Notes: generated from the letters alone by a model not told the origin. A DNA stretch of 64,000 nt from Elusimicrobiota bacterium (GCA_027319565.1 DAHVNA010000001.1:114716-178715), one strand, 5' to 3'. Shown: positions 2,824-42,781, counted from the first letter of the stretch. Made by a program: numbers and translations.

Positions 2824-5064
2824 ATGGCGCGCTCACGGCCTGTCGCGGAAACTTTGCCGGTTGGTCTTTCATGGCTGGATTTCCTTCAGCATTTTTTTCT
2901 GGTCTTAGCCTTTTTTGTCTCTCCGCTGATTTTTTTTACCAATCTTACTCGCAATCCCTATATCACGCAGATTTGCGCCCTCAATATCTCGATTTCCATC
3001 GTTCTCACTCTTTGGATGTTCCAAAATTACGGAGAGTTGCGAAAGATTAAGACGGTTCTTGATTTTCCGCTGCTCTTTTGGACCCTCATTATTTTCATCA
3101 GTTGGGGATACGCTTTTTTTAGGCACGTCAAATTTTACCGGCCCTCCGTTTTCAATGAAGGCCTTAACCATGAAATTTTTTGGGTGATCAACTGCCTGGG
3201 GGCTTTTTTTATCGGGGTTTCTTCGATCCGAAGTCAAGAGGAGGCCGATGAAGATGTCAACATCTGGGCGTGGGCGGGTTTTTGCGTTGTATGGGGGAGT
3301 TTGTGGTTTTTTTTCCCGTTGATGAGGAGTTCCAACTCGCCAGCCACCGACATCGCGGCCTTGGTCTGGAACGGTTACGGGGCTTTTCTCTGGGTGTTGG
3401 GAGTGGGATGTTGCGTTTACTTAAGCTTTAAAAGAAGAGCCATTGATTATCTCCATCTCGCTTTGGCCGCGGGGTTTTTGGCCTCGGCTTACGGCGTTCT
3501 TCAGTATTTTAATTTTGAGTTTATTTGGCCTCACGCGCTCAATCCTTATGGCGGACGCGCGGTTTCAACTTTTGGAAACCCCAACTTCCTTTCTTCCTAC
3601 AATGTCATCTTGCTTCCTTTTTGCGTGGTTTTATGGGCCCGAGCCAAGGGTGGGGCGCGTTATTGGTATGGCATCTGCGCGCTGACGCTTGAAGCCGGGC
3701 TTTTATGCAGCCTGACCCGCTCTTCTTGGCTTGGGGCTTTTGTGGCCGTGTCTTTCTTATTTTTTTCGAAAGGATTTATTCATATGCTCCGGAAAGAAAT
3801 ACGCCTATTTGGGCTTTTTTTTGGAGTGGGTTTTGCCGTTTTTGTCTTATGGCCGCATAGTCTTCTTTCGGCTGGATATCATCCCAGCGTTTTAGGGCGC
3901 TTGGAAGAAGTCGATACCTTGCTTAAGCCCGGACCGGTGAAGCAGGCCTATAGTCCTTGGCATCAAAGAGTGATGATTTGGACTTGCGCCTGGCTGATGG
4001 CCAAAGACAATCCCTTGACCGGGCAAGGTTTTGGGCTTTTTGAGTTGTTCTATCCGTTTTATCAAGGACCGGTTTTGCGGGCTACGCCTTTTTACTGGGA
4101 TTTAAGGACTCATGCCAACAATGCCCACAATGAGGCGCTGGAGGTTTTATCCCAGACAGGGATATTGGGGCTGGGGTTGTTTATTTGGGTCTGGGTGGTT
4201 TTTTTCCGTTTCGCGCGTGATTTTAGCGGTCAAGAAGAAGATTCCCTTAAAAATTTGTGGGTTTCCGCGGGCGCGGCGAGCGTTTTGGGCATGCTGGCTG
4301 ACAATCTCCTCAACGTGTCTCTTCATTTCGCGGTTCCGGCTTTTCTTTTTTGGTGGGTGGTGGGCTCTAGCGTTGGAAATGGGCGCGTTCACTTTTTGAA
4401 GGCGAGGGCGGAAAAAAATAAAAGAAATATTTGGGTTTTTCTCTCTGTTTTAGGCTTATGCGTGTGGATGATCGGGCGCTGGAGCTGCGTTTGGGAAAGA
4501 GAAGTCCATTATTTTTCCGGTTTTAAATTAGCTAGACAGGGAGATATGCCTGGCGCGATTAATCAGCTTGAGATTTCAAAACATTGGGGGCCGCCCGAGG
4601 TTAACGCGATTTACGAATTAGGCAACGCTTACGCGCGTTCCGGGTTTTTTAGAAGAGCTGAAAAAAACTATCAGGCGGCTCTTGATGCCAATGCGGGATA
4701 TGACGAAATTTTCTTTAACAAGGGGGCTATCGAGGCCAATCATCTCAATGACATCCTCGACGCGATTAATAATTTTCGCGTTTCGTGGTGGATTAACCCA
4801 CTTTTGAAAGACGTTTACAATAGCCTAGGCGCGCTTTATTTGCGAGATCCGCTTAAGTATCTCTCGCCGGCCTTGGATCTTCTCTCATATGGCGTCAAGG
4901 TATTCCCCCAAGACTCCGGGTTCTGGAATAATTTAGGCTATCTTCAAACCCTCAATAAAAATTATCCTGAAGCTGTCAGCGATTATCAAAGAGCTCTTCA
5001 GATTAACCCCAATTTGACCGCCGCGCGAAAGAATCTGGAAATTCTAACCCACTTTCGTCCCTAA
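2824..5064 (+). CDS. O-antigen ligase (Wzy_C)-like polytopic membrane protein with C-terminal TPR repeats. This is a candidate PglL/TfpO-type O-oligosaccharyltransferase.
   Basis: At least 10 TM helices. Wzy_C-like core LCSLTRSSWLGAFVAVSFLFF. C-terminal TPR-like units: IYELGNAYARSGFFRRAEKNYQAALDAN and NNLGYLQTLNKNYPEAVSDYQRALQINPN. Confidence 0.65.
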   Translation: MARSRPVAETLPVGLSWLDFLQHFFLVLAFFVSPLIFFTNLTRNPYITQICALNISISIVLTLWMFQNYGELRKIKTVLDFPLLFWTLIIFISWGYAFFRHVKFYRPSVFNEGLNHEIFWVINCLGAFFIGVSSIRSQEEADEDVNIWAWAGFCVVWGSLWFFFPLMRSSNSPATDIAALVWNGYGAFLWVLGVGCCVYLSFKRRAIDYLHLALAAGFLASAYGVLQYFNFEFIWPHALNPYGGRAVSTFGNPNFLSSYNVILLPFCVVLWARAKGGARYWYGICALTLEAGLLCSLTRSSWLGAFVAVSFLFFSKGFIHMLRKEIRLFGLFFGVGFAVFVLWPHSLLSAGYHPSVLGRLEEVDTLLKPGPVKQAYSPWHQRVMIWTCAWLMAKDNPLTGQGFGLFELFYPFYQGPVLRATPFYWDLRTHANNAHNEALEVLSQTGILGLGLFIWVWVVFFRFARDFSGQEEDSLKNLWVSAGAASVLGMLADNLLNVSLHFAVPAFLFWWVVGSSVGNGRVHFLKARAEKNKRNIWVFLSVLGLCVWMIGRWSCVWEREVHYFSGFKLARQGDMPGAINQLEISKHWGPPEVNAIYELGNAYARSGFFRRAEKNYQAALDANAGYDEIFFNKGAIEANHLNDILDAINNFRVSWWINPLLKDVYNSLGALYLRDPLKYLSPALDLLSYGVKVFPQDSGFWNNLGYLQTLNKNYPEAVSDYQRALQINPNLTAARKNLEILTHFRP

Positions 5065-5151: not shown

Positions 5152-6978
5152 ATGTTTAGAAGGAGGCAGAAGTTTTTTTGGAGCTTGATTATTGGCTCAC
5201 TTACCGTCGGTGCATGGGGGGGAATTATTGCTGGCCAAGAGCCGCCGCTGAGCCGCGATATGCAACTGGGAATTTTTTATTTCAAGAAGGGGGAGGATTC
5301 CGAGGCGATGGACCGCTTTATTGAAGTCCTTAATGGCGGAAACCCGACCGAGAGAACCCTTGCCAATAAGTATCTTAACCGTATTACTCGGCGCATGTCG
5401 GGGACAGAATCAAATCCACAAAAACCAGCTCAAAAAACGGAAGAGAAAACATCTTCTTCTTCATCCTCGGCTGTTCCCTCAAGCGCCGTAAAACCGGCTC
5501 CAAGTCCTACTCCATCCCAAGCTCAAGCCGCGCCAGCGTCTGTTGCGGCGCCGCATGAAGCGCCTGTAGCGTCCCCTCAAACACAAAAACAAAGCCCTGC
5601 GGTTGCTGTTTCCCCTACGGCTCAAGCCGCGCCACTGAGTCCTAGCGCCATTCAAGAACAAATCAAGGGGAAAATCCAAGCCTTGGCTGATTCCGGATTG
5701 AGGCGCTTGAAGCGCGTTCATCGTGTCGTTATTCTTCGTAAAAAAGATGAACGGCCGTTGGCGATTGCCTTGCCTTCGGATATTCTATTTGAAAAGCAAA
5801 TAGCGTTTAAAAACCGCGCCAATCAAATTATTTCCGATTTAGCCTCGGTCACTTACGGAGAAGGACAAGCGAAAATATTCATTTTCCCCCAAGGAGCCGC
5901 ATTGGGAGATGTGAAGGTCATGGATATGCGTCGGGCAGTGGCTCTCGCCGATTCCTTGGTGTCTCTGGGAATCGCTCCTAGCCGGGTTCAGGCGGAGCTT
6001 CTCACTGGAAGCTCATACCGCATTCCGAGTTCGCTTCTTTCATTTAAAGGGATTATCTTGGTTTTTGATTATCATTCGACTCTTGATCTTAAGGCGCCGC
6101 CGGACGAGTCCGGACCGCCCTTATCGATGGGGCTTTCTAGTCCGCGGTTCAGGGCTGATCAAGGCCAAGGCGTTTTGATCGAGTTCTCCGTTCAAAAACC
6201 GCATTCGGGGGTGAATTTCTGGAGATTTAAGATTTTGGGACCCGAGAACGCCAAAGCGAAGACAATTGAAGAAGTCGTGGGAAGCGGCCCGGTGTTTCAT
6301 CAGGTCTATTGGGACGGCAGGAAAAATTATTCCGGCTTTCATGAACCCTATGGTTTTTATGAGTGCCTTTTAACGGCGAAAGATGGCTCAGGGCGAACTC
6401 GGGCGATTCACCGTTGGGTTGAACTGGCCGGACCCGCTGGGGCGCAACACGCTTCAAGGAAAATTCCCGCGAAGGCATCCAAGGTAGTCAGCGCATCGAA
6501 GCGTTCTCATCTTAAGCCAGCGGGGAAGTCTTTTCACGGCAAAAAAGTTTCATATGTTCAATTGCGCGCGAGCCGCAGAAAGAAAATGAAGCGGAGTCTG
6601 CATGAAAAGAAAATAAAATCCCGAGCGAAAGGGCCTCGGATTGCAAGCGCGATTGTGTTTAAGACCAGTAGTTATCAATTGTCAAAAGCCATGAAAAGCA
6701 ATATCCTGAAACTTGCGCGTGACATGGCTAAAAATAAGAAAGTCCGATATGATATTATCGGTTATGCCAAGCCTGCGGAAAAAAATGCTAAAAACTTATG
6801 TCGGCAGCGGGCGCAGATAGTCGCCGGATTGCTCATCAACAAATATCGGATTAATTTTAAAAGGCTTAAAATCAGCGGGAAAGTGTCAAATTTAAAAGGT
6901 TCTCGTGTGCTGGTTTTAGCGCGAATAGCCGCAAAAAAGAGGAGAATTCAAAAGCGTGGACGAAAAGTTCATCGATGA
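5152..6978 (+). CDS. Envelope protein with an N-terminal TM/signal anchor, a Pro/Ala/Ser-rich linker, two OmpA-like peptidoglycan-binding domains and one FlgD-Ig-like domain.
   Basis: N-terminal TM/signal FFWSLIIGSLTVGAWGGIIAG, then a P/A/S-rich linker. OmpA-like segments: ANQIISDLASVTYGEGQAKIFIFPQGAALGDVKVMDMRRAVALADSLVSLGIAPSRV and NLCRQRAQIVAGLLINKYRINFKRLKISGKV. FlgD-Ig-like segment: GPVFHQVYWDGRKNYSGFHEPYGFYECLLTAKDGSGR. Confidence 0.5.
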   Translation: MFRRRQKFFWSLIIGSLTVGAWGGIIAGQEPPLSRDMQLGIFYFKKGEDSEAMDRFIEVLNGGNPTERTLANKYLNRITRRMSGTESNPQKPAQKTEEKTSSSSSSAVPSSAVKPAPSPTPSQAQAAPASVAAPHEAPVASPQTQKQSPAVAVSPTAQAAPLSPSAIQEQIKGKIQALADSGLRRLKRVHRVVILRKKDERPLAIALPSDILFEKQIAFKNRANQIISDLASVTYGEGQAKIFIFPQGAALGDVKVMDMRRAVALADSLVSLGIAPSRVQAELLTGSSYRIPSSLLSFKGIILVFDYHSTLDLKAPPDESGPPLSMGLSSPRFRADQGQGVLIEFSVQKPHSGVNFWRFKILGPENAKAKTIEEVVGSGPVFHQVYWDGRKNYSGFHEPYGFYECLLTAKDGSGRTRAIHRWVELAGPAGAQHASRKIPAKASKVVSASKRSHLKPAGKSFHGKKVSYVQLRASRRKKMKRSLHEKKIKSRAKGPRIASAIVFKTSSYQLSKAMKSNILKLARDMAKNKKVRYDIIGYAKPAEKNAKNLCRQRAQIVAGLLINKYRINFKRLKISGKVSNLKGSRVLVLARIAAKKRRIQKRGRKVHR

Positions 6979-8581
6979 ATGGGCCTTTGGGATAAAGGCT
7001 CCCAAGGTTTCTCAAAATCTGGGCATTTACCTAAGCCCAAGCGTGGCCTATATTGCCCAATCCCATCTCAACAAAGGCCGTTTGGTTTTAGATCAGCTTT
7101 TTCGCGTGGCCCTTCCTAAACCTAAAGTCGTGGCTCCGCCTAAGGAAGCTTCTCAAATGCCGGGAGTGGAGTTGTGGGGAGATTTTAACGATATTTTGGA
7201 CGTTTTGCGCCCCTCTATAGGCAAACTGGTCAATGCGCCAAAGGAGGTCGTGGTTTCTCTCTCTCCGGAACTCAGTCTCCTTCGTTATTTTCAGATGCCT
7301 CAAATTGAGCAAAGATTTTGGAAAACGGCAATTCCTTTGGAGGCAAAAAAACATATTCCTTTCGCCTTTCAAGGCCTTACCAGCGATTTTCAGGTTTTTC
7401 CTTCTGCGGTTTCAACCCCGGAGGGAAAAACGATGCAGGGGGTCTTGTTCGCCGTCACGTCTAAATCGACCTGGGAAGGCGTTAGAGATTTAATGAAGGG
7501 GTTGAAATTAGAGATGGTGGCCATGGAGACCAGCGTCAACTCTTATTTGAGATTTCTGCTGTCCATGGATAAAGGGATTGCGGATCCTGCTTGCCTTTGG
7601 GTCCATTTTTCCGATGTGAAGGTTCGCATTGTCGGATTTGCAAAAGGAATTCCGCTTTTGTTTAGAGAAGCTGATTGGTATCCCAATGGTGATCTAAGGA
7701 CGCTAGGACTTCCCAGCCTGGTTGATTTTATCAGCCATAAATTAAATTTGGGGTCCGTGCAAAAGTGCTTAGTTAGCGGCGCAGCCAATGAGTCTATCAT
7801 TGCGGGGCTTTCCCAGGAGATAAATCTGAGAGGGGAACCCAAAAACCCTGGACTTCCATTAGGGCTTAAGGGCGGAGATTTTGAGTCTTATGCCGCCATT
7901 GGCGGTTCTTTCCGTTTTACCGCTCCTTCTCCCGCCAATATCGATTTTTCCGCGGCAATGAAGGTGACTGATGGCGAGAGAAAAGCGGCGATGTTTGTTT
8001 TTGGGGCTTCAGTTGTTGTCGCCGTACTTTTTATCGTTTTAGGCTTGTTCTCAGGTGTCCAAGTTTTCATGCAATCACGGGAACTTTCAGGAATTAAAAG
8101 AGACCCGCATGTCGAGGCCCTCTTTCGCGGAAAATCCCAGGGGGATATACAAAAGATGATCTCTAAAATAGAAAAAGAAACGGCTTTTTTAGGCGGCGCC
8201 AGTAATAAAAAAAATGACCCTTCTGTTTTCCTTGAGGATATCGCTGCTTCCATTCCCGAAAACCTTTGGCTGACCGATATAAAACTGGATAATCCCTTAC
8301 CACGGCCAGGGCGCAACATAGGGCAGGGTATGACACTAAAATTATCTGGATATTCCACGGCCGATTCGCGGATGGGGGAAGAAGAAGACGCCAAAAACTT
8401 TAAAGAAGCTCTTGAGGAATTGCCTGATTTTAAAAGATTTTCCGTTCAGATACAATTGCAGAAAGGGCAAAGCCAAAGCATGTTTGGGGGTCTCAATAAA
8501 GACCCGTATGAAGCGGAGCGGCAGCGCGAGAAAAGAACGGGTTTTGATATTACCATTCAGCCGCGATACGATTTAAATTAA
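6956..8581 (+). CDS. pilM: Type IV pilus assembly PilM (actin-like ATPase fold) fused to a PilN-like TM + periplasmic segment.
   Basis: PilM-like N-terminus GIYLSPSVAYIAQ. A single TM at the C-terminal third (MFVFGASVVVAVLFIVLGLFSGVQVF) is followed by a PilN-like periplasmic region (ENLWLTDIKLDN...MTLKLSGYS). Position immediately upstream of the pilO/pilP/pilQ homologues. Confidence 0.6.
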   Translation: MDEKFIDEWAFGIKAPKVSQNLGIYLSPSVAYIAQSHLNKGRLVLDQLFRVALPKPKVVAPPKEASQMPGVELWGDFNDILDVLRPSIGKLVNAPKEVVVSLSPELSLLRYFQMPQIEQRFWKTAIPLEAKKHIPFAFQGLTSDFQVFPSAVSTPEGKTMQGVLFAVTSKSTWEGVRDLMKGLKLEMVAMETSVNSYLRFLLSMDKGIADPACLWVHFSDVKVRIVGFAKGIPLLFREADWYPNGDLRTLGLPSLVDFISHKLNLGSVQKCLVSGAANESIIAGLSQEINLRGEPKNPGLPLGLKGGDFESYAAIGGSFRFTAPSPANIDFSAAMKVTDGERKAAMFVFGASVVVAVLFIVLGLFSGVQVFMQSRELSGIKRDPHVEALFRGKSQGDIQKMISKIEKETAFLGGASNKKNDPSVFLEDIAASIPENLWLTDIKLDNPLPRPGRNIGQGMTLKLSGYSTADSRMGEEEDAKNFKEALEELPDFKRFSVQIQLQKGQSQSMFGGLNKDPYEAERQREKRTGFDITIQPRYDLN

Positions 8582-8585
8582 TTTT

Positions 8586-9175
8586 ATGGCTATGGATATT
8601 AAGGATATCAATAGAAAAATTCGCCATTTGCAGCGAGATTTTGGCGATACTATTTTTGTTCTCCAAAATAAGGGACTTAAGTATTTCCAACGCGTTTGGT
8701 TGGCGGCGCTTCTCATTTGTTTGTACCCTATAAATTCTTTTATCAATCGATGGATAGTAGAATTTCGTCATTAGAGATGAGAATTAAGACAGCCCGGGCC
8801 ACTAATAAATATGCCAAGACCTATAACGATGCCATGGAAAATCTTCTCGTCGTTGAGCGCCGCCTTCCTCCGGCAAGCAAGGGGACCGGGTGGTTAAGCG
8901 ATATTTCTATTTCTTCTCTCAAAGACGAAAACATTACTCCTGATTCAGTCTCTTCCGTCCATCAAGTTCAAAGCGGAAAACTTATTAAGGAAAGCATCTC
9001 GGTCGATTTTCAAGCGAAATTCCCTGAAATTTTTTCGTGGCTTTATAAGATTGAACACGATCATTATCTGATTCATGTTGACTCTCTGCAGATAAAAAAG
9101 AAAGGGCTCGATGAAAACAAAGTTCATTGCACTCTTTCTACTTTGATTCAGGCTGGATCCGGAGGTAATTCCTAA
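8586..9175 (+). CDS. PilO-like inner-membrane pilus assembly protein, apparently split by a frameshift. A TM-bearing ORF (8586..8774) is followed by a coiled-coil periplasmic ORF (8696..9175).
   Basis: ORF 8586..8774 encodes a short cytoplasmic segment plus a TM (RVWLAALLICLYPINSFI). The overlapping +2 frame continues from about 8750 with MDSRISSLEMRIKTARATNKYAKTYNDAMENLL... for roughly 140 aa. Position between pilMN and pilP. The frames switch near the homopolymeric tcttttatcaatcg around 8738-8752. Confidence 0.35.
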
Positions 9176-9177
9176 AC

Positions 9178-9894
9178 ATGGCTAAAAAGAGTCCTGCGGG
9201 CTGGGTGGTTCTTATGCTTGTTTTAGCCCTTCCGGGACTTGCTTTTTATTTTTGGTGGAATCATTTGGGCGGCAATCATAATGTCACTCAAAAACTCGCG
9301 AAAACACAGCCTTTTTCTCGTGTTTTTAACGCCTCTCCCCCTGGCACTAAGGTCTCAATTCCACGATTTTCTAGCGCTCCGATGGCGCCTGCTTCAAGCC
9401 CTCAAGCCTCGCCGAAATCTCCGGTGGTCGCAAAAACAATGCCCGCAGCTCTTGCCCGACCCGGCGTTTCTACGCCTTCCTCTGTTTCATTGGTCAACGC
9501 AGGAAAGCCGCTTACTACCTCTTCGGTTTCAGCCATGGCTTTAAAACCCGTAGCGCAAAATGGCCAGAAATTAGCGGTTCCAACTTTGAAAAGAGACCCC
9601 ACTCTCTCTCCGACGGACCGACAGGAAATTTATGATTTGCTTCACCCGAAGCCTAAACCCAAGATTGTGCGCCGGAGGATTAAAAAGAAAAAGGGCCCTC
9701 CTATTGAAAGTTTGATTGATTTGTCAGGAATCATTTTTATGTCTCCATCGAATGCCAAGGCGATTATTAATGGAAATCTTATGAAGGTGGGGCAAATGGT
9801 GCATGGGGCTAAGATTATTGAGATCGAAAAACAAAAAGTTATTTTCTCTTATCATGGGCGAAAGGTAATCAAGGTGATGAGCGGTAAACTTTGA
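9178..9894 (+). CDS. PilP/GspC-like pilus assembly protein: TM anchor, Pro/Ser/Ala-rich linker and a C-terminal beta domain.
   Basis: TM anchor VVLMLVLALPGLAFYFWW. Low-complexity P/S/A linker. C-terminal IIFMSPSNAKAIINGNLMKVGQMVHGAKIIEIEKQKVIFSYHGRKVIKVM resembles the PilP/GspC HR domain. Located directly upstream of the secretin. Confidence 0.5.
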   Translation: MAKKSPAGWVVLMLVLALPGLAFYFWWNHLGGNHNVTQKLAKTQPFSRVFNASPPGTKVSIPRFSSAPMAPASSPQASPKSPVVAKTMPAALARPGVSTPSSVSLVNAGKPLTTSSVSAMALKPVAQNGQKLAVPTLKRDPTLSPTDRQEIYDLLHPKPKPKIVRRRIKKKKGPPIESLIDLSGIIFMSPSNAKAIINGNLMKVGQMVHGAKIIEIEKQKVIFSYHGRKVIKVMSGKL

Positions 9895-9904
9895 GGAGAC
9901 TATT

Positions 9905-11893
9905 ATGAAGATTAATGGGTGGGGTTTTAAAGGTCTTGCGTGGGGAAAAAGTTTGTGGCGCGCTCTTTGCCTTTTATCAGCCTTGGAATTGGCCCTTTTG
10001 CCTGGGTTGACGGCCCTAGCCCAATCCGACAGCTCAACTCCCGAGGCCAATCCGCAGTTCCAAAATTCCGTGCAAAGTCCTAAAAGCGATTCCGGCTCTC
10101 CAGTGGGAAGCGTTTCCGCCGTTAAAGCCCATGCCGCGTCGGCTTCTAAAGCCCTCGAGCAGGCAAGTTCCCCTTCTCAAGCGGGCGCGTCTCCGTCAGG
10201 AATTCAAATCGGCGCTTCCAGTTCTCCAACGCCCCCGCGTAAGAAAAGAGCCCCATCCCCTTTGGACACACGCGTTTCGATTCGAGTCAAGGGCGCGCCA
10301 TTGGCGACTTTTTTAGATGCCATTTCCGCTCAGGCCAGGATTAATTTCTTAATCACCGAGGGCCTTGAGTCAGTTAAAATGACCGCCTTTTTGCAAAAGG
10401 TGACGGTTCGAGAAGCCTTGCAGATCCTTCTTGAAATTAAAGGCTTAACCTATCGGCAGATTGGCAAAAGTAATACCTATGTCATTAAAAAACGTTCCAA
10501 AAATGCTCCCAACTTTATCACGCGGATTTATTCTCTTTCCTACATACCCTTGGTCAATATCTCTCAACAAGGAACCCAAGGTCAACAAGGAGGAGCGGCA
10601 GGCGGCGCGGCGGGCGGCATGGCGGCAATGCTCGGCGGAATGGGGGGGCCGTCTGCGGGAGGAAGTTCTGGCGGCGGCGCGCCGGGAGGAGCTGGCGGTT
10701 CTGGCGGAGGGTTGGCGCCAGGTCAGGGTGGGCAGGCTTTAGGAATGGGATCCATGATGGGAGGCGCTGGCGTGGGTGGACAGCAAGGCGGCATGCCGGG
10801 AGCGGGAACCGGGGGCGTGAGCTCTATTGTGACCGTGGTCCAATCGGTTTTAACCAAGGCCGGCCGAGTGGCTGTGGATCCTCGAACCAACTCTTTAATC
10901 GTAACCGATGTGCCGGAGGTCTTTCCCCAGGTGGATCAACTGATTGCCGAACTTGACAAAAAAGTTCCCCAGATCATGATTGAGGCCCAGATTGTGGAAA
11001 TTGATTCCAATCGCGCCAATGATCTCGGTTTTGAGTGGGGCGGGCCAAACGGCGAAATGGGGACTTTTACCGGTGGCCAGCGCGATACGTCTTTTCCAAT
11101 GGTTTTGACCGGAGCCAGCGGCCAGCCGCGCTTTTTTGATCCGGTTCAAAACGTCATGAGCACCTTGGCCCTTGAAGGCGGCGGCATGATGGGGGGCAGT
11201 AGCGGCGGCATGGGCGGCGGCATGGGCACGACCTTGGGCGGAATTGGATCCACTGGCGGAACCTTGGCTATTCCCACGACACAGCCGGGAATCAATCCTC
11301 TGACCGGGCTTCCTATGCTGGGGTCTAGCGTCATGACCAGCGTCTTGAACTTAAGCCAGCTGACGATTACCTTACGCATGCTGGTCTCTCGCTCGGAAGC
11401 GCGCTATTTGGGAAAGCCCAAAATCTTAACCGTCAATAATACTCCGGCGACGATTTCTATCACTGGAAACACCGCAATTTACATGTCGCAGCAGACCACC
11501 GGCGGGACCATGGGAATTACCCAGGCGACCTATTCTCCTGTGACTGCAAATACTGGCCTTACTTTGACCGTGACTCCTCAAGTCAACGGCGATGGATATA
11601 TTACGATGGCGGTCAATCCTCAGTTTACCGATGTGCAACCAGCGGTCATTTCAAGCGCGGCCAATCCTGTTTATGACACTCTGGTTCGACGTGCGCAAAC
11701 CCTAGTGCGCGTCAAAAATGGAGAGACCTTGGTTCTTGGAGGGCTTTTGCATTCAACCGAACAGAAAACCGTGCGCAAGGTTCCGTTTTTGGGATATATT
11801 CCCGTCATCGGATGGCTTTTTACCAGCGTCCAAGCCCAGCGCAAGAACACGGATCTGGTCATCTTTATAACGCCGACCATCATTAACGATTGA
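9905..11893 (+). CDS. pilQ: Secretin (PilQ/GspD family) with long Gly-rich low-complexity inserts.
   Basis: Signal peptide. N0-like ITEGLESVKMTAFLQKVTVREALQILLEIKGLTYRQIG. Secretin_N: RVAVDPRTNSLIVTDVPEVFPQVDQLIAELDKKVPQIMIEAQIVEI. Secretin C domain: LVRVKNGETLVLGGLLHSTEQKTVRKVPFLGYIPVIGWLF...DLVIFITPTII. Gly-rich inserts at about aa 218-300 and 420-455. Confidence 0.85.
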   Translation: MKINGWGFKGLAWGKSLWRALCLLSALELALLPGLTALAQSDSSTPEANPQFQNSVQSPKSDSGSPVGSVSAVKAHAASASKALEQASSPSQAGASPSGIQIGASSSPTPPRKKRAPSPLDTRVSIRVKGAPLATFLDAISAQARINFLITEGLESVKMTAFLQKVTVREALQILLEIKGLTYRQIGKSNTYVIKKRSKNAPNFITRIYSLSYIPLVNISQQGTQGQQGGAAGGAAGGMAAMLGGMGGPSAGGSSGGGAPGGAGGSGGGLAPGQGGQALGMGSMMGGAGVGGQQGGMPGAGTGGVSSIVTVVQSVLTKAGRVAVDPRTNSLIVTDVPEVFPQVDQLIAELDKKVPQIMIEAQIVEIDSNRANDLGFEWGGPNGEMGTFTGGQRDTSFPMVLTGASGQPRFFDPVQNVMSTLALEGGGMMGGSSGGMGGGMGTTLGGIGSTGGTLAIPTTQPGINPLTGLPMLGSSVMTSVLNLSQLTITLRMLVSRSEARYLGKPKILTVNNTPATISITGNTAIYMSQQTTGGTMGITQATYSPVTANTGLTLTVTPQVNGDGYITMAVNPQFTDVQPAVISSAANPVYDTLVRRAQTLVRVKNGETLVLGGLLHSTEQKTVRKVPFLGYIPVIGWLFTSVQAQRKNTDLVIFITPTIIND

Positions 11894-11948
11894 AGGCCTT
11901 GACATATTCCGCAAACCCGTTATACTTCTAAAAGGGGTTAAAATTTAA

Positions 11949-13703
11949 ATGCCTGACAAAGCCTTCTTGGCGGATATGATGGTTTCTTCCGGTTCGCTGA
12001 CGGCGGAACAAAAAGAGAAAGCTCTCAAGGCTTCTCAAGAAGCTAGGTGCAGCTTTGAAGAGGCGGTCATTAAACTTGGTTTCGCTTCCGAAAGCGTGGT
12101 CACTGCGGCTTTGTCAAGGCAATTAGGCATTCCCCTCGCTTCGCGGGAAAATAAGATTTTAATCCCGGAAAAAGGCCAGGGGCTTGAGAAATTGATTCCT
12201 GAAAATTTCGCTCGAGATCATCTGGTCGTTCCCCTATTTCTTGAAGATGGCACCCTGGGCGTTGCGATGGCAGATCCTACCAATGTGATGCTTCAAGATA
12301 ATATTCGGGTCTTGAGTTCCAAAACCATTCATCCCTTTGTGGCGGCAAAAACTCAAATTTTAAAGTCCATTGACGAGCTTTATGGCGGAAATCTTGGAGG
12401 CAGTCTCGTTGATCGTACGCTGGAAGAGGGTAAAAAAAGCGGCGGGGTTAGCGCTGAAGAATCCGACTCTGCGGATGTGCGCGTGGATCTCGACAAGGCT
12501 ATTTCTGGTTCAAAAGACGCCCAGATTATTTCTCTTATCAACGCCATTTTAAAACAGGCCGTCAATGAGAGATGTTCCGATATTCATTTGGAAAGTTTTG
12601 ACAACCGCGCGAGTTTGCGCTTCCGCATCGACGGGATTTTGTATGAGAGAAGCTCTCCTCCCAAAGCGATATTCGCGTCCTTGGTTTCGAGGATCAAAAT
12701 TCTCTCGAAACTTGATATCGCGGAGCGCCGTCTGCCTCAAGATGGAACCTTTTCAATTAAACTTCAAAACCGCAATATCGATCTGCGGGTTTCCATTTGC
12801 CCGACGGTTTACGGAGAAAAGGTCGTCATGCGTATTTTAGATAAGGGCGCGGTTAATCTTGACGTAGATAAAATCGGCTTTGAGCCAAAACAGAAAGCGG
12901 ATTTTTTGGATGCGGCCAAACAGCCCCATGGCCTGATATTTCTCACCGGTCCCACGGGGTCCGGAAAAACCACCACCCTTTATTCCGTCTTAAATACCAT
13001 TAAAACGCCGGAGCTTAATTTTATGACTATTGAGGATCCGGTTGAAATTAAGCTCGACGGTCTCAATCAAGTTCAGGTTCGCTCCGATATCGGGCTTACT
13101 TTTGCCGCGGCCTTGCGTTCTTTTTTACGCCAAGATCCGGATGTGATTTTAGTCGGAGAGGTTCGAGATCAGGAAACCGCCCAGACCTGCTTAAGGGCGG
13201 CCTTAACCGGACACCTGGTTCTTTCGACTCTTCACACTAACGACGCGATGTCAACAGTCGTGCGTTTAATTGATCTGGGAATCGAGCCGTTTTTGCTTTC
13301 CGGAAGTCTTCTTTTGGCGGCGGCTCAGCGCTTGGTTCGCATTCTTTGTCCCCATTGCAAAAAGCCTTATAAACCGGACCCCGCTCAATTGGAGGCTTGC
13401 ATCAAGGAATCCATGTTGCCGCAGGCTCAAATTCCGAATCCGGCCAATATCGTTTTTTACAGAGAGCATGGCTGCGATAAATGTTCTCAAACCGGTTATA
13501 TGGGCCGACGGGCGATCTATGAAATTTACCGTATTATTCCGGAGATGAGAGAAATTATCTACAAATACGGCGGCGATTTGGCCCGGCTTCGAGAGGTGGC
13601 GGTCAAAAGCGGCATGTGGGATTTAAGGGCGAGCGGTTGGAGAAAGGTTTTGTCCGGGTTGACGACTTCTGAAGAGGTGCTCTCGGTGACGATGAAGGAA
13701 TAG
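11949..13703 (+). CDS. pilB: Type IV pilus / T2SS assembly ATPase (PilB/GspE family).
   Basis: T2SSE_N domain (LADMMVSSGSLTAEQKEKALKASQEARCSFEEAVIKLGFASESVV). Walker A GPTGSGKTTT. Asp box LVGEVRD. His box. Tetracysteine CPHCK...CDKC. Confidence 0.85.
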   Translation: MPDKAFLADMMVSSGSLTAEQKEKALKASQEARCSFEEAVIKLGFASESVVTAALSRQLGIPLASRENKILIPEKGQGLEKLIPENFARDHLVVPLFLEDGTLGVAMADPTNVMLQDNIRVLSSKTIHPFVAAKTQILKSIDELYGGNLGGSLVDRTLEEGKKSGGVSAEESDSADVRVDLDKAISGSKDAQIISLINAILKQAVNERCSDIHLESFDNRASLRFRIDGILYERSSPPKAIFASLVSRIKILSKLDIAERRLPQDGTFSIKLQNRNIDLRVSICPTVYGEKVVMRILDKGAVNLDVDKIGFEPKQKADFLDAAKQPHGLIFLTGPTGSGKTTTLYSVLNTIKTPELNFMTIEDPVEIKLDGLNQVQVRSDIGLTFAAALRSFLRQDPDVILVGEVRDQETAQTCLRAALTGHLVLSTLHTNDAMSTVVRLIDLGIEPFLLSGSLLLAAAQRLVRILCPHCKKPYKPDPAQLEACIKESMLPQAQIPNPANIVFYREHGCDKCSQTGYMGRRAIYEIYRIIPEMREIIYKYGGDLARLREVAVKSGMWDLRASGWRKVLSGLTTSEEVLSVTMKE

Positions 13704-13711
13704 GAGGCCTT

Positions 13712-14935
13712 ATGTCTCAATTTTCATATGTCGTTCAAGACGCTAGGGGCGAGGCCATTTCTGGGACCCTTGAAGCGGGAGATGAAAACGAAGCGGTGGC
13801 GGCCCTTCAATCAAAGGGCTATTTTATTTTGTCATTGTCTTCTAAAGACACAAAGACGACCAGCCGACAAGGCGCATCTTCCAAATCGCCCAAGGTCGCC
13901 CAGCAGGATCTTATTTTCTTTTCTGAACAATTGTCGACGCTTTTAACCGGTGGCGTTCCTTTAGTTCGAGCTTTGTCCTTGCTTGGAGAACATACCAACT
14001 CCCCGGGGCTTCACGCGGTGGTGGGAGCGGTGACCCAAGACGTGTCCCGCGGAACGGCGCTTTATAAGGCTCTGGCGAAACATCCCGCCATTTTCGATAC
14101 CTTGTGGGTTTCCCTGGTTCAAGCGGGAGAAATGGGAGGACAACTCCCCAAGGTTTTGCGGCAAATCGCCAATTATTTGACGGCTCAAGCGGAATTAAGA
14201 GGAAAAATCATCACGGCTTTGGCTTATCCCGCGGTTCTGGCTTGTATGTCGGGAGGGGTTCTCGCTTTTTTCGTCATCCATATCGTCCCGGTTTTTGCCG
14301 ATATTTTTAAGCAATTTCACATTAAACTCCCGATGCTCACCCAAATGGTTGTTTCCACTTCGGAACTCATCGTTCATCACTTAGGCCTGATTATTTTTGT
14401 CGTGGTGGGGGGATACATGGCGTGGAAATCGTATACTTCCACCGATGCCGGCAAAATTGCCAAATGGAATCTGATATTTGGAATTCCTTTTTTTGGCGAC
14501 TTCATCAAACACATTATGGTCGAAAGACTCTTGACTACTCTTTCGACTTTAATTGAAAGCGGCGTCAGTATTCTTAATGCGATTGCGGTTTTAGAAGGCG
14601 TTTTTTCATCCAATATTATTTTCCAGACGGCTCTGAGCGCGATTAAGGTGGACGTGGCGGCGGGAAAATCAATATCGGCGGCCTTTAGAAAATCGGGGGT
14701 TTTGCCTTCCTTGGTAACCGAGATGATGTTCATGGGGGAAGAATCGGGCAAGTTGCCGGATATGCTTCAGACCATGTCCGGGTTTTACAGGCTTCAAATT
14801 GATCAGTTTACTCGCAGATTCACCGCCATTATAGACCCGATACTGGTGGTCGGAATCGGCGGACTTGTCGGCGTTATTGTTTTAGCGGTCTTTATGCCAA
14901 TCTTTAAAATGTCGACGATGGGAGGAGGACATTGA
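13712..14935 (+). CDS. pilC: Type IV pilus / T2SS inner-membrane platform protein (PilC/GspF family).
   Basis: Two T2SSF repeats (FSEQLSTLLTGGVPLVRALSLL and LTTLSTLIESGVSILNAIAVL). Three TM segments. Directly follows the ATPase gene. Confidence 0.85.
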   Translation: MSQFSYVVQDARGEAISGTLEAGDENEAVAALQSKGYFILSLSSKDTKTTSRQGASSKSPKVAQQDLIFFSEQLSTLLTGGVPLVRALSLLGEHTNSPGLHAVVGAVTQDVSRGTALYKALAKHPAIFDTLWVSLVQAGEMGGQLPKVLRQIANYLTAQAELRGKIITALAYPAVLACMSGGVLAFFVIHIVPVFADIFKQFHIKLPMLTQMVVSTSELIVHHLGLIIFVVVGGYMAWKSYTSTDAGKIAKWNLIFGIPFFGDFIKHIMVERLLTTLSTLIESGVSILNAIAVLEGVFSSNIIFQTALSAIKVDVAAGKSISAAFRKSGVLPSLVTEMMFMGEESGKLPDMLQTMSGFYRLQIDQFTRRFTAIIDPILVVGIGGLVGVIVLAVFMPIFKMSTMGGGH

Positions 14936-15546
14936 TGAACGGAGAGGAGAAGAAAGTAAAAGAGAGTAACGGAGAGTCACGGAAAGTAGAAGAAAGTTAC
15001 GGAAAGCGACAGAAGCAACGGAAACAGCCTTTTTCCGTTTCTTTCCGTTTCTTTCCGTTTCTTTCCGTTCCGTTTGGTTTTACGCTCATAGAGCTTTTAG
15101 TGGTGATTTTGATTGTCGGAATATTGGCGGCTATTGGATATCCTTCCTACATCCGTTCGATGGAAACCAGCAAGGCCAACGACGCCGTGGGGTATTTGAC
15201 CATGGCTGGGAACGCCGATCGGATGTACGCCGTGGATCATAATGGGATATATGTTGCAGCGGGACAAATTACTGATTCCTGTGATAATGGGGCTACTTGT
15301 CCTCAGAACAATGCCTGCGACTTGGTCTATTGCGGCTATATGCCGGCGGACAATTACAGTGAAAAGCCCTACAGTATTACCATTAATGCTTACGCTCCGC
15401 CTCCATCAGCGCTGGTGACGGTTCAGCGTTGTACAGGTTCTTCTCCTTGTACAAATTCTTCTCCTTACACCGGTTGGGGATATAATATTGATGCCAATGG
15501 AAATGTCACGCCATTTGGTAATCAGACGCCGCCGCCGCCACAATAA
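14935..15546 (+). CDS. Type IV pilin/pseudopilin (probable major subunit) with an exceptionally long charged leader of about 48 aa before the prepilin cleavage site.
   Basis: The ATG overlaps the pilC stop (ttgATGA). Class III signal ...SVPFG|FTLIELLVVILIVGILAAIGYPSY, with Gly at -1 and Glu at +5. The C-terminal domain is Cys-rich with a Ser/Thr/Pro-rich tail (GSSPCTNSSPYTGWGY...TPPPPQ). The leader is encoded by inverted and tandem repeat DNA. Confidence 0.75.
   Translation: MNGEEKKVKESNGESRKVEESYGKRQKQRKQPFSVSFRFFPFLSVPFGFTLIELLVVILIVGILAAIGYPSYIRSMETSKANDAVGYLTMAGNADRMYAVDHNGIYVAAGQITDSCDNGATCPQNNACDLVYCGYMPADNYSEKPYSITINAYAPPPSALVTVQRCTGSSPCTNSSPYTGWGYNIDANGNVTPFGNQTPPPPQ
14966..15075 (+). 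repeat. Inverted repeat with a tandem arm inside the pilin leader-coding region. ACGGAAAG-type units at 14966-15028 face (CTTTCCGTTT)x4 at 15031-15070.
   Basis: Direct reading: gtaacggagag / tcacggaaag / ttacggaaag / caacggaaacag, then cc, then ttttccgttt ctttccgttt ctttccgttt ctttccgttc cgttt. The two arms are reverse complements, so the segment can fold as a long RNA/DNA hairpin. Confidence 0.7.
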
Positions 15547-15561
15547 GAAAGAAGAAAGCAA

Positions 15562-16131
15562 ATGAAAGAAACGGGCGCGACGCTTATTGAGGTTTTAGCC
15601 TCCGTTCTCATAGCGGCGGTGATGACTTCCGCTGTTTTCAGCGTGACCTTGGGGGCCAAGGTACAATCAAAAATTACGGAAGAACACAATGCGGCGTCTG
15701 AGTGCGTGACCCAGCTGACCAATGAACTTCACTCTTTCGTCACCGGTTATTGGGATTACAATACGAATACTTTCAATTCCAATATGACGGAAATCTGCGG
15801 CCCCGCTGATTCGTCTTGTTACCCGGGAACAAGTGGGGGGAATTCCTCTCAATGGACTTGGGCAGATCTGGGAGTAACGGATAACTGCGGGAGCGGCTGT
15901 TACGTTTTAGCTACCGGAACTCACGTCCTTTCAGTTGGGCCCAATGGCTTGACGGCTTTGGGCCAACCCTTTTGTCTTCCTCCCTGGATGTGGCAGCCGC
16001 CTTATAATCCTAGTGGAAATCAGCTCTTGTCCTATACCGTTTCGGCTCCACCGATCGTCTCCGGTCAACAAGTGGGAGGGCCAGGGGTTCAAGTGACGGT
16101 GAATTGGTATAACATCAATGGGTCCCAATGA
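15562..16131 (+). CDS. Minor pilin/pseudopilin (prepilin-type N-terminus).
   Basis: MKETG|ATLIEVLASVLIAAVMTSAVF has the class III signal with Glu at +5. Size and position match the minor-pilin block. Confidence 0.7.
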   Translation: MKETGATLIEVLASVLIAAVMTSAVFSVTLGAKVQSKITEEHNAASECVTQLTNELHSFVTGYWDYNTNTFNSNMTEICGPADSSCYPGTSGGNSSQWTWADLGVTDNCGSGCYVLATGTHVLSVGPNGLTALGQPFCLPPWMWQPPYNPSGNQLLSYTVSAPPIVSGQQVGGPGVQVTVNWYNINGSQ

Positions 16132-16802
16132 ATAAAAATTTTATCGGAGTTTCGATGAGAAATGGCGGATTTACCTTGGTCGAAATGATTGTCGCTCTTC
16201 TTTTAAGCTCTCTTGTCATGGTGGGCTTGATTGATATTACCGCTAGCATCATCGCCCAGCATTTTGAGGGAATTCGTAGAGGAAGAGTAGACAGTGAGAC
16301 CCTTTATTCTCTCGATCAGATGAGGCTGGAGCTTGAAGCCGCGACCTATTACTCTTATCCCAATACGTCAAGCCCGGCTACCATGTCCATTCAGGGCTGC
16401 GGAAATTATTTTTCAGCGACAAGCCCTGGTACGCAAATTTACACGGGGCCCGGCGCAACAATAAGTTCTTTTGCCTATTGCCTTGAGAACAAGTGTACAG
16501 GGAGTAATTCCAATTTGTGCGATCCATCGGGTTATACGGGGCCCTATGATTTAATTCGCTATTATAATCCCAATGGTTGTCCTATTTCGTGCGGAGGAGG
16601 GACGCCTCAGACCTTGGTTTATCAGAATGTCTATTTAGAACCAATATCATTAAATCCTTCGGGCCAGCCTTTTGTCTTGAACCGGCCGCTCGGCGGGGTC
16701 GATGTGCATATGATTATAGGCTATCCTGTTTTGGCGGGAGAAACCCCCACCTATTATCAAATTGATACAACCTATATTCCGGATACGGGGCGCATGCAGT
16801 GA
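16128..16802 (+). CDS. Minor pilin/pseudopilin (PilW/GspJ-like).
   Basis: MRNGG|FTLVEMIVALLLSSLVMVGL prepilin motif. Start overlaps the upstream stop (ATGA). Confidence 0.7.
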   Translation: MNKNFIGVSMRNGGFTLVEMIVALLLSSLVMVGLIDITASIIAQHFEGIRRGRVDSETLYSLDQMRLELEAATYYSYPNTSSPATMSIQGCGNYFSATSPGTQIYTGPGATISSFAYCLENKCTGSNSNLCDPSGYTGPYDLIRYYNPNGCPISCGGGTPQTLVYQNVYLEPISLNPSGQPFVLNRPLGGVDVHMIIGYPVLAGETPTYYQIDTTYIPDTGRMQ

Positions 16803-17233
16803 TTAAAAATTCCAGAGGGCAGATTTTAACCAGCACCTTGGTGACCGCCATGGTGGTAGTCCTCATCGCGGCCGGGCTCATGCATTTAATCTTGATGAGG
16901 TATACCGCCGCTAATAGAGCGACGATGGAGGTTAAATACACCCGCTGCGTTCAACTGGCCGTGGGTCAATTTTTTTCTACCTGGGACAGGCTTAGTTCAA
17001 CTGCGGGGGTCACCGATCCTGTTTGCAGTAGCGCGTCGCCACTGTTTACCTGTGCTGGGTCAAACCATGGACATTGCCATTGTACCTGTACATTTAACAG
17101 TGGATCCTTATCCGGCCTCACGGTGAAGGTGAAACCTGGTACAAATGGTGCAAACCCTCCTTGCACTTTTGAGGCTCAGACTACAACGAATACGTCCTCG
17201 CCCTTTGCCTCGGTTACCCCCGTTTGCCAGTGA
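16799..17233 (+). CDS. GspK/PilX-like pseudopilin lacking Glu+5.
   Basis: N-terminus SRGQILTSTLVTAMVVVLIAAGLMHLILM resembles the GspK-type hydrophobic segment, with no Glu at +5. The product is short (144 aa) and Cys-rich. It is the last gene of the pilin block. Confidence 0.45.
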   Translation: MIKNSRGQILTSTLVTAMVVVLIAAGLMHLILMRYTAANRATMEVKYTRCVQLAVGQFFSTWDRLSSTAGVTDPVCSSASPLFTCAGSNHGHCHCTCTFNSGSLSGLTVKVKPGTNGANPPCTFEAQTTTNTSSPFASVTPVCQ

Positions 17234-18201
17234 AACGCCTAATTGTTACCGCCGACGATTTTGGGGCGAGTTCTTTTGTCAACGAGGCGGTCATCCGCGC
17301 TTTTAAAGAAGGCATTTTGCGCTTTGCAAGCTTGATTGTTGACGCGCCCGCGGCCGAAGAAGCGGCGAAATTGGCTAAAGAAAACCCTGGCCTTGGCGTC
17401 GGGCTTCATTTGGACTTGTGCCATGAATTTGGAAGCGATTCTTGCTTTCCTCGTCATTCCGGCGAAAGCCGGAATCCAGACTTTCGCGCGGAGCTAGACT
17501 CCGGCTTACAAATTGCCGGAGTGACGAATCGAGCGGTTTGGGCCAATTCTCCAGCTCTTTGGGGCTTACGGTATTTTTTTTCTCCATATTGGAGAAAACG
17601 GATCGCTTCAGAAATTTCCCGGCAACTAGAGAAGTTTCTCTCGCTTGGAATTAATCCTACGCATGCGGACGGGCACACTAATATCCATATCCACCCCGTT
17701 ATTTTCCCCGCCCTTTTGCGGGCCTGCCAAAAATACGGAATTTCCAGGATCAGGGTTCCCGCCGGAGAGTACGATTTGGGCCGGCGCTATTTAAAGAAAA
17801 TTCCGTTTCTAAACAAGGTAGAATACGCGGCGTTTGGAGCGCTTGGCCCCTATCTCAAAAAACAAGCCAAGAAAATCGCGCCTCAAATCGAGATACTTCC
17901 CCGCTGTTTTGGACTTTTGCGCTCAGGGCGCATGAGGGAAGACTATGTTCTAAGGCTTTTAGAAAATCTGCCCGAGGGAGACAGCGAAATTTATTTTCAT
18001 CCCTCGCTGGATCCAAAAAGCCGAGTGTTCGGAGATTCTCCGACAAAGACCCATCAGACCATAACGGAATTTGAAACCTTGACTAGTCCGCGGATTTTAG
18101 AAGCTCTGGGGCGTTTGGATATCGCGTTGTTTTCGCCCGGTGGCTTAGATAAATCAAAAAGCCAAACGAAGACCACAAAATCTCCCGAATATGGCGGATA
18201 A
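17224..18201 (+). CDS. hpnK: ChbG/YdjC-family carbohydrate deacetylase, HpnK-like. It carries an in-frame REP-like insertion of about 25 aa.
   Basis: YdjC signature RLIVTADDFGASSFVNEAVIRAFKEGILRFASLIVDAP...GVGLHLDL. It sits next to hpnL, hpnI and hpnJ-like genes. The segment CFPRHSGESRNPDFRAELDSGLQIAGVT is encoded by the palindromic element at 17452-17526. Confidence 0.6.
   Translation: MPVKRLIVTADDFGASSFVNEAVIRAFKEGILRFASLIVDAPAAEEAAKLAKENPGLGVGLHLDLCHEFGSDSCFPRHSGESRNPDFRAELDSGLQIAGVTNRAVWANSPALWGLRYFFSPYWRKRIASEISRQLEKFLSLGINPTHADGHTNIHIHPVIFPALLRACQKYGISRIRVPAGEYDLGRRYLKKIPFLNKVEYAAFGALGPYLKKQAKKIAPQIEILPRCFGLLRSGRMREDYVLRLLENLPEGDSEIYFHPSLDPKSRVFGDSPTKTHQTITEFETLTSPRILEALGRLDIALFSPGGLDKSKSQTKTTKSPEYGG
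17452..17526 (+). repeat. REP/MITE-like double-hairpin palindromic element, copy 1, in frame inside the hpnK CDS.
   Basis: CGTCATTCCGGC-GAAA-GCCGGAATCCAG ...21 nt... ACTCCGGC-TTACAAATT-GCCGGAGTGACG. These are two perfect 8-bp stems, and the element ends are themselves inverted (CGTCA...TGACG). Confidence 0.7.
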
Positions 18202-20256: not shown

Positions 20257-20262
20257 TCCAGA

Positions 20263-42727: not shown

Positions 42728-42781
42728 TGAATGGACGGAATTTTATTTCTAGTGGAGTGGTTCATAAATCCATTTACAATC

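Follow-up and report, generated by a model that had tools for sequence, protein, structure and literature searches.

The question raised by the gene cluster at positions 5152-17233 is whether it builds a pilus or a secretion machine. The cluster lies in a 64-kb stretch of a metagenome-assembled genome (MAG) of the Elusimicrobiota, which we call the window and in which all coordinates are counted. An earlier note on this DNA had proposed an assembly cluster of mixed type IVa pilus (T4aP) and type II secretion system (T2SS) character. We consider it probable that the cluster encodes, in a single operon, a type IV filament machine of the T4aP or mannose-sensitive haemagglutinin (MSHA) kind, which assembles a pilus. 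Across T4aP, T2SS and MSHA systems the weight of the sequence evidence favours the pilus side, i.e., the PilM fold, the similarities to PilN, PilO and PilP, a motor with an MshEN domain, a secretin of HofQ/PilQ type and a T4a-like pilin. Because of these traits we prefer a T4aP/MSHA-like pilus to a divergent T2SS and to a true MSHA member.

Open reading frame (ORF) listing and translation recovered every gene named in the earlier note on the + strand, in the order and at the coordinates given there. They form part of a co-directional run from the Wzy_C/TPR gene (2824) to the YdjC/HpnK gene (18201), in which neighbouring genes overlap or are separated by no more than 87 nt:

2824..5064, +, Wzy_C membrane protein (O-antigen-ligase-like) with C-terminal TPR (Pfam Wzy_C 58 bits, plus TPRs)
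5152..6978, +, 608-aa OmpA-C envelope protein (OmpA 32.4 bits, residues 503-579)
6956..8581, +, PilM-PilN fusion, 541 aa (fold, family profile search)
8586..9175, +, PilO/GspM-like bitopic protein, frameshifted in the window (profile match to M. xanthus PilO)
9178..9894, +, HR-type protein with transmembrane (TM) anchor, 238 aa (weak T2SSB and GspC matches)
9905..11893, +, outer-membrane secretin (Secretin 144.5, Secretin_N 44.7, STN 24.8 bits)
11949..13703, +, assembly ATPase with MshEN and T2SSE (T2SSE 445.6, MshEN 60 bits)
13712..14935, +, PilC/GspF inner-membrane platform (T2SSF 184.9 bits, two domains)
14932/14935..15546, +, major pilin (G|FTLIE, Glu5)
15562..16131, +, minor pilin (G|ATLIE, Glu5; N_methyl 14.9 bits, weak)
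16128..16802, +, minor pilin (G|FTLVE, Glu5; N_methyl 27.5 bits)
16799..17233, +, small minor pilin of 144 aa without Glu5 (G|QILTS)
17224..18201, +, YdjC/HpnK-like deacetylase (YdjC 186 bits; HpnK 200.4, cutoff 232.6)

The cluster holds the parts by which Denise et al. (2019) recognise a type IV filament system in general, i.e., an ATPase, a platform, a pilin with class III signal peptide and, in diderms, a secretin. The T2SSE, T2SSF and Secretin matches listed above and two N_methyl matches (25.7 and 27.5 bits) all lie above their Pfam cutoffs. That this is a type IV filament cluster which does not fit a canonical T2SS, as had been claimed, is borne out by the missed Gsp cutoffs and the domain architecture described below.

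Motor, platform and secretin

The ATPase has an MshEN N-domain; its T2SSE core contains Walker A and B motifs, the Asp and His boxes and a zinc motif of the form CxxC...CxxC. It scored below the equivalog cutoffs of both PilB (TIGR02538, 593.8 vs 675.65) and GspE (TIGR02533, 557 vs 630.25). Its N-terminus could be aligned to PilB structures only, and the same holds for the full-length protein. With MshEN and no N1E domain it resembles A. baumannii PilB and E. coli HofB, whereas E. coli GspE, analyzed as a control, has N1E and no MshEN. We calculated a neighbour-joining tree from 382 core columns with 200 bootstraps. References were annotated records from E. coli, Acinetobacter, Comamonas, Deinococcus, Acetoanaerobium and Manganitrophus together with PDB alignments, i.e., a thin sampling with no MshE. 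ATPases linked to a fused PilM-PilN protein in Elusimicrobiota, Omnitrophota and Planctomycetota formed one clade (bootstrap 86). This clade is separate from that of GspE (bootstrap 99) and from that of PilB in Proteobacteria and Myxococcus (bootstrap 97). With this sampling, the tree shows that the ATPase is not inside canonical GspE and provides no finer placement.

The platform protein scored 326.4 on GspF (cutoff 424) and 286.5 on Thermus PilC. The secretin was likewise below the cutoffs of PilQ (TIGR02515, 215.6 vs 284.35), GspD (TIGR02517, 199.8 vs 351.35) and MshL (148 vs 250.2). Among the ATPase, platform and secretin models, no equivalog cutoff, Gsp or Pil, was thus reached by any part of the machine. 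The secretin consists of an STN/N0 domain, one Secretin_N domain and the secretin core, an architecture of PilQ/HofQ type, and has neither AMIN nor S-domain. HofQ and the Omnitrophota counterpart also showed STN and one Secretin_N, and the E. coli GspD control showed gspD_N0 and three Secretin_N domains.

The marks of canonical GspE and GspD are therefore absent, i.e., the ATPase missed its cutoff, has no GSPE_N1E and lies outside the GspE clade, and the secretin missed its cutoff and has a single Secretin_N and no gspD_N0. The earlier note had stated that an ATPase and a secretin firmly within GspE and GspD, next to identifiable gspC, gspL and gspM, would mark an ordinary T2SS; this combination was not found. 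We also observed two Gly-rich low-complexity inserts in the secretin, at residues ~215-300 and ~420-470 (window 10550-10800 and 11160-11310; local GC 54%). They are placed between N0 and Secretin_N and ahead of the secretin core, respectively.

The MshEN domain bears on another reading, in which the cluster is a true MSHA member, i.e., an adhesive pilus that does not retract, is controlled by c-di-GMP and has its genes in a single locus ordered I-J-K-L-E-G-pilins. MSHA loci are ordered mshIJKL..EG..pilins, and the order PilMN-PilO-PilP-secretin-ATPase-PilC-pilins found here runs parallel to it. Moreover, MSHA pili descend from T4aP, lost PilT on the way and nearly always have their genes in a single locus (PMC10191384, PMC6668835), and the ATPase has the MshEN domain. 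Its tandem RLGxxLVxxG...Q motifs are canonical in the Omnitrophota and Planctomycetota orthologues (loci L070-L083). In the window species they are degenerate (FLADMMVSSG..., SFEEAVIKLG...; window 11949-12150), and the c-di-GMP motif model scored 21.4 on the ATPase (cutoff 38).

The defining MSHA components were not found. MshL stayed below its cutoff, family scans gave neither a gene for MshM (AAA) nor one for MshN (stand-alone TPR), and the c-di-GMP-binding motifs in the MshEN domain of the ATPase are degenerate and score below the cutoff. The ATPase tree had no MSH reference. We hence regard true MSHA membership as improbable. The degenerate motifs suggest that c-di-GMP control has been lost in this lineage; with motifs that are canonical in the outgroup phyla and degenerate here, such control is not claimed for this machine.

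The PilM-PilN fusion and its scaffold partners

In a single-sequence Pfam scan, the 541-aa protein matched PilM_2 with 19.8 and PilN with 22.1 bits. The proposed search for both domains was therefore successful in so far as both were found, at scores below the Pfam thresholds. An AlphaFold model calculated from a 12-sequence alignment (predicted local distance difference test score 72) showed an actin-like PilM domain at ~20-330, a hydrophobic TM helix at 342-374, a coiled coil and an alpha/beta domain at ~435-536. The PilM part is cytoplasmic and the PilN part is a periplasmic ferredoxin-like domain. Fold comparison of the model gave scores of 20.7, 20.3 and 20.3 with PilM from Thermus, Myxococcus and Pseudomonas, respectively, 18.0 with FtsA, and 14.0 and 12.1 with the cytoplasmic part of GspL. 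The family profile matched M. xanthus PilM (E 1.3e-10) and PilN (E 0.004), and a search with it gave no match to GspL. Pfam found no T2SSL or GspL_C in the 541-aa protein, i.e., the GspL of a canonical T2SS is not recognisable here. In remote fused homologues from Omnitrophota and Planctomycetota, both PilM_2 and PilN exceed the Pfam gathering thresholds within one chain. The 541-aa protein is a genuine fusion of PilM, a TM helix and PilN, with domains of PilM/PilN type rather than GspL type.

Two further comparisons had little resolving power. An hhalign of the fusion family profile with GspL, a Comamonas GspL-like protein and HofM gave nothing significant even for the PilM homologue HofM, so that the test was without power. 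A phmmer search with E. coli and Comamonas GspL/M/C/K/A/B and HofM/N/O/P against the ORFs of 83 loci found no matches, which is uninformative at such divergence.

The single chain had been called notable. It is real, as fold and profile show, and it is not rare. A scan of one genome per GTDB species contained 220 relatives, and 3361 representative clusters matched at E≤1e-3 among 1.84 billion proteins. Nearly all of the best 150 clusters are 500-590 aa long and match end to end. The fused clusters carry the NCBI name "pilus assembly protein PilM" and represent several phyla. A tblastn search of a plasmid collection gave no match to fused PilMN.

In unfused systems, PilM is bound by an N-terminal peptide of PilN. 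Ahead of the PilM domain, residues 1-17 of the fusion (window 6956-7010) contain a conserved ..LI[DE]xxAFG.. stretch with nearly invariant A10, F11 and G12, modelled with low confidence.

GspL itself has been described as a PilM-PilN fusion (PMC10191384, PMC4471445). The M-N fusion is hence the most T2SS-like trait of the cluster and no argument for a T4aP. PilMNOP-type proteins, which had been taken to argue for a T4a pilus, are indeed present; the fusion of M and N among them is T2SS-like.

The next gene encodes a PilO-like protein. A profile of 26 sequences matched M. xanthus PilO (E 1e-5) and gave no match to GspM. Single-sequence Pfam matches were all below threshold, i.e., T2SSM_b 18.2-18.8 (cutoff 21.7), T2SSM 16.2 and PilO 13.6. 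This gene had been reported as split, which traces to one missing G near 8717. Two NCBI MAGs (GCA_027406935.1 and GCA_021819565.1) and one ENA assembly encode an identical 541-aa protein and an intact 196-aa pilO ORF. The deletion is the only difference from these three assemblies over 18,580 aligned nt and is therefore probably a sequencing or assembly error. Since pilO is intact in three otherwise identical assemblies, the split is an assembly- or strain-specific 1-nt indel and no feature of the system.

Downstream of pilO, the HR-type protein matched T2SSB with 22.8 bits (cutoff 28.4) and GspC with 17.3 (cutoff 101.6). Its family profile gave marginal matches to PilP (E 0.02), GspB (E 0.057) and the GspC HR domain (E 0.13). 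It has a TM segment at 5-28 with no Cys or lipobox, a conserved PilP-like RDPxLSP motif and a short C-terminal beta domain; family scans found no PDZ domain. By these features we assign it as an HR-family connector equivalent to PilP, GspC or GspB, anchored like GspC and GspB and not as the lipoprotein PilP, and presumably the link to the secretin. Separate PilM, PilN, PilO and PilP with PilP as a lipoprotein are consequently not found in this cluster, as one chain carries both M and N, and the protein resembling PilP is TM-anchored.

The 608-aa OmpA protein begins with a signal or TM segment and ends with an OmpA domain for peptidoglycan binding (32.4 vs a cutoff of 27.2 bits); between them lie a low-complexity linker and a weak module resembling FlgD-Ig. 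Its gene overlaps the start of PilMN by 23 nt and always lies directly upstream of PilMN in Elusimicrobiota loci. The FlgD-Ig label given to it earlier was undetected by Pfam even at E≤5; its sole basis is a weak BLASTP similarity (E 0.002) of residues 335-420 to FlgD-Ig repeats of another window protein. This other protein, with 1099 aa, many FlgD-Ig/Big repeats and a C-terminal OmpA domain, is encoded in a second envelope cluster (39521-48587) that also contains a 1068-aa TPR protein, MotA/ExbB and a TonB_C protein. Because of the fixed position of its gene, the translational overlap with PilMN and the secretin devoid of AMIN domains, the 608-aa protein is probably the peptidoglycan anchor of the machine.

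The scaffold could also be read as that of a divergent T2SS, with the fusion as GspL, the PilO-like protein as GspM, the HR-type protein as GspC or GspB, and a short endopilus that pushes folded proteins through the secretin. The description of GspL as a PilM-PilN fusion (PMC10191384) agrees with this, as do the single locus with no pilT nearby, the weak matches to T2SSM_b (18.8), T2SSB (22.8), GspC (17.3) and GspG (40.5), and a platform protein that scored higher on GspF (326) than on PilC models (286). Moreover, non-canonical Comamonas clusters combine an MshEN ATPase with a PilN-domain GspL and a T2SSM_b protein. However, all Gsp equivalog cutoffs were missed, there is no T2SSL/GspL_C match and the fold of the fusion is closer to PilM. 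The ATPase lacks N1E and lies outside the GspE clade, and the secretin has one N-domain, not three, and no gspD_N0. Also, we found no PDZ or coiled-coil GspC, no large GspK, three minor pilins only, a pilin fold closer to T4a pilins, and no candidate substrates. A divergent T2SS is thus an unlikely explanation that nevertheless deserves more weight than MSHA membership.

Pilins and the conserved neighbourhood

The mature major pilin comprises 155 aa, 6 of them Cys. It has the Phe+1, Glu5 and alpha-beta fold of T4a-type major pilins, and T4a pilins are the nearest to its modelled fold. The short leader of this type is 3-8 aa long in sister species (MNVRSG|FTLIE, MKG|FTLIE); in the window species only, it extends to 47-48 aa. 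This is caused by an in-frame imperfect palindrome of ~125 nt, inserted at 14941-15072 with Gly-1 kept, in which AACGGAAAG-type units face 3.5 tandem CTTTCCGTTT units. The palindrome has a folding energy of -52.5 kcal/mol (z -3.2), and its motif occurs nowhere else in the window. The insert may be a hairpin, an insertion resembling a miniature inverted-repeat transposable element, or a regulatory structure.

Together with the pilO frameshift near 8717, this hairpin inserted into the 47-aa leader could mean that the cluster is decaying and non-functional. We consider this very improbable. Three independent assemblies in which the ORF is intact differ from the window by nothing but the frameshift, the leader insertion preserves both the reading frame and Gly-1, the remaining genes are intact with their catalytic motifs, and the operon is conserved across the phylum.

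Orthologues of the minor pilin at 15562..16131 begin with G|(F/Y/S)TL(I/V)E, and the minor pilin at 16128..16802 gave weak matches of ComGF/PpdB type. The last pilin lacks Glu5 in the window and in 14/14 orthologues inspected. It is presumably the cap or first subunit of a tip complex. The absence of Glu5 was correctly noted before, when this pilin was described as GspK-like; nothing else about the 144-aa protein is GspK-like, and family scans found no match to GspK or any other family. Tip complexes of type IV filaments are in general capped by a Glu5-less subunit (PMC10191384), and such a cap is hence not specific for T2SS. The T2SS features formerly seen in the cluster are therefore weak. 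A canonical T2SS has five pseudopilins, G to K, with a large GspK; this cluster has four pilin genes, with a GspG score of 40.5 vs a cutoff of 88.85. We also considered whether conservation of the major pilin might indicate a periplasmic pseudopilus. It is about the same as that of PilMN (0.22 vs 0.20 of self-score), and we draw no inference from it.

Loci related to that of the window are overwhelmingly labelled Elusimicrobia/Elusimicrobiota. Window proteins were mapped by phmmer onto the ORFs of 83 loci. About 60 Elusimicrobiota loci have the operon, and its core is also present in Omnitrophota and Planctomycetota. The suggested gene-order comparison revealed one recurring arrangement in most Elusimicrobiota loci, i.e., Wzy_C/TPR - OmpA - PilMN - PilO - HR protein - secretin - ATPase - PilC - pilins - HpnK. 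A dozen or so loci have the ATPase-PilC(-pilin) module between Wzy_C/TPR and OmpA instead. In Omnitrophota and Planctomycetota the order is PilMN - (gap) - HR protein - secretin - ATPase - PilC - pilins, with no OmpA and no Wzy_C/TPR. The best sigma-70-like promoter match of the region (TTGACA-16-TATACT, 11/12) lies at 11899-11926 in the 55-nt gap between secretin and ATPase. This consensus match sits at the border of the ATPase-PilC module that occupies another place in those dozen or so loci, and would fit a separable module.

Flanking genes are as described before, with an MltB-like transglycosylase and Wzy_C/TPR on one side and HpnK, HpnL-like, HpnI and HpnJ on the other. Wzy_C/TPR (2824-5064) and HpnK (17224-18201) bracket the operon throughout Elusimicrobiota (loci L004-L068), internal rearrangement notwithstanding. 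In nearly all of these loci and in both arrangements, the Wzy_C/TPR gene lies directly upstream of the cluster. Its product, which has weak PilW/Tgl TPR matches, could be a pilin O-glycosyltransferase, a glycan ligase or a pilotin-like factor.

The HpnK gene shares 10 nt with the end of the last pilin gene and accompanies the cluster throughout the phylum. Despite this strong synteny we rejected HpnK as a machine part, as it fits the adjacent hopanoid genes and probably belongs to these convergent hopanoid-tailoring genes. They form a side-chain cluster on the minus strand (18083-21720) that encodes an HpnL-like membrane protein, HpnI (309.1, at about its cutoff of 310) and HpnJ (771.6, above its cutoff of 577.6). 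HpnK together with HpnI, HpnJ and the HpnL-like protein suggests synthesis of bacteriohopanetetrol-glucosamine/cyclitol ether in this Elusimicrobiota genome. Further downstream (31909-33975), following two histidine-kinase genes, the window encodes a 688-aa protein with a weak CsgG-like N-terminus, ankyrin repeats and a caspase domain (Peptidase_C14).

A probable pilus machine and its relation to known systems

A pilus machine of this composition might work as follows. One major prepilin, two Glu5-containing minor prepilins and one Glu5-less cap prepilin would be processed by a prepilin peptidase whose gene lies elsewhere in the genome. A PilB-type hexameric ATPase, acting via the PilC platform, would extract the pilins from the inner membrane and add them to a filament that starts at the minor-pilin tip complex. 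Together with PilO and the HR protein, the PilM-PilN fusion would form an alignment ring that couples the cytoplasmic motor to the PilQ/HofQ-type secretin, through which the filament would exit to an extracellular location. The covalent M-N link would stand in for the PilM-PilN peptide interaction, as in GspL. Anchoring to peptidoglycan, for which other PilQ secretins have AMIN domains, probably comes from the OmpA-domain protein.

Neither a PilT-like second ATPase nor a prepilin peptidase (PilD/GspO) is encoded in the 64-kb window. Genes of T4aP are normally scattered, and the absence of pilT and pilD from one window therefore says little. The genes are indeed absent, as had been noted; as a T2SS-like trait, their absence is uninformative.

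A number of observations weigh against a pilus. Neither PilT nor a prepilin peptidase was found within ±10 kb of about 80 related loci. The single locus, the fused M-N and the TM-anchored, non-lipoprotein HR protein are traits of T2SS or MSHA. The ATPase core matched structures of PilB (415 and 398 bits) and GspE (394 bits) alike, its clade is separate with deeper tree nodes at bootstraps of 8-48, and its best plasmid match is a Comamonas T2SS-like cluster with an MshEN ATPase and a PilN-domain GspL. Also, the secretin matched PDB entries of GspD and PilQ equally (~100 bits), the pilO-like gene is frameshifted in the window sequence, and the system is known here from genes alone.

Classified by the scheme of Denise et al. 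2019 (PMC6668835), the cluster would be T4aP-like or "generic"; Tad systems are the only context in which that work names Elusimicrobia. Beyond general reviews and this survey, the literature that could be searched gave us no account of the operon or of naturally fused PilM-PilN proteins in systems of pilus type, an absence that is weak evidence. The cluster is a lineage-wide variant of a well-known machine and no new kind of system, and its parts are already annotated publicly as pilus proteins. Elusimicrobiota thus have one filament operon that is highly conserved and includes an OmpA-domain and a Wzy_C/TPR partner specific to the lineage.

More tentatively, and with some doubt, the PilM-PilN-fusion systems of Elusimicrobiota, Omnitrophota and Planctomycetota might be a distinct deep clade characterised by one operon, a PilB-type ATPase, a PilQ-type secretin and a GspL-like fusion. 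If so, they could preserve an intermediate from T4aP toward T2SS or MSHA, or represent an independent second invention of the GspL architecture, and would provide a handle on the origin of a secretion machine from a pilus. The window represents a widespread natural lineage of machines in poorly studied phyla in which the fusion is done, the halves are still PilM/PilN-like and motor and secretin are still of pilus type. This makes it a useful comparative case for the effect of a covalent M-N link and for the diversification of pilus machines.

Among known systems, the Akkermansia Amuc_1098-1102 cluster, of the Planctomycetes-Verrucomicrobia-Chlamydiae type, shares a PilM-like protein of ~600 aa and a secretin with the window. 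Matches to its families are weak and far below the cutoffs, i.e., Amuc_1101_fam 17.6 (650) and Amuc_1098_fam 76.5 bits (750). The Comamonas odontotermitis plasmid NZ_CP083452.1 (locus L088) encodes gspE-F-G-H-I-J-K, a 438-aa 'PilN domain-containing protein', a T2SSM_b GspM and gspD. Its ATPase, the best plasmid match to that of the window, has MshEN instead of N1E. Judged from these annotations, the locus shows that T2SS-like loci with a PilN-type GspL exist in Proteobacteria.

MSHA systems of Vibrio and Shewanella resemble the cluster in that one locus encodes scaffold and secretin, followed by ATPase, platform and pilins, with an MshEN ATPase and no PilT nearby. They differ in that the window has no MshM or MshN, a secretin below the MshL cutoff, a degenerate c-di-GMP motif and a pilin unlike MshA. 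With the T2SS (GspC-M of E. coli K-12 and Vibrio Eps) the cluster shares the single locus, no retraction ATPase nearby, a bitopic HR-domain protein and a scaffold of GspL topology, i.e., a cytoplasmic actin-like domain, a TM helix and a periplasmic ferredoxin-like domain. In contrast to the T2SS, it has no T2SSL/GspL_C, N1E, gspD_N0, PDZ or pseudopilin of GspK size, one Secretin_N and not three, a different gene order and an ATPase outside the GspE clade.

From the T4aP machine of M. xanthus (PDB 3JC8) the cluster differs by M and N in one polypeptide, a TM-anchored HR protein and a secretin lacking AMIN. Its operon includes OmpA-domain and Wzy_C/TPR proteins in one locus with no pilT or pilD nearby, it misses all equivalog cutoffs, and its ATPase lies outside the reference PilB clade. 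Both share a PilB-type ATPase, PilC, the PilM fold, PilN/O/P-like partners, a PilQ/HofQ-type secretin, a T4a-like major pilin with F+1 and E5 and an E5-less cap pilin. Moreover, for the ATPase, PilM, PilN, PilO and PilP, the best PDB sequence match is in each case a chain of the M. xanthus machine.

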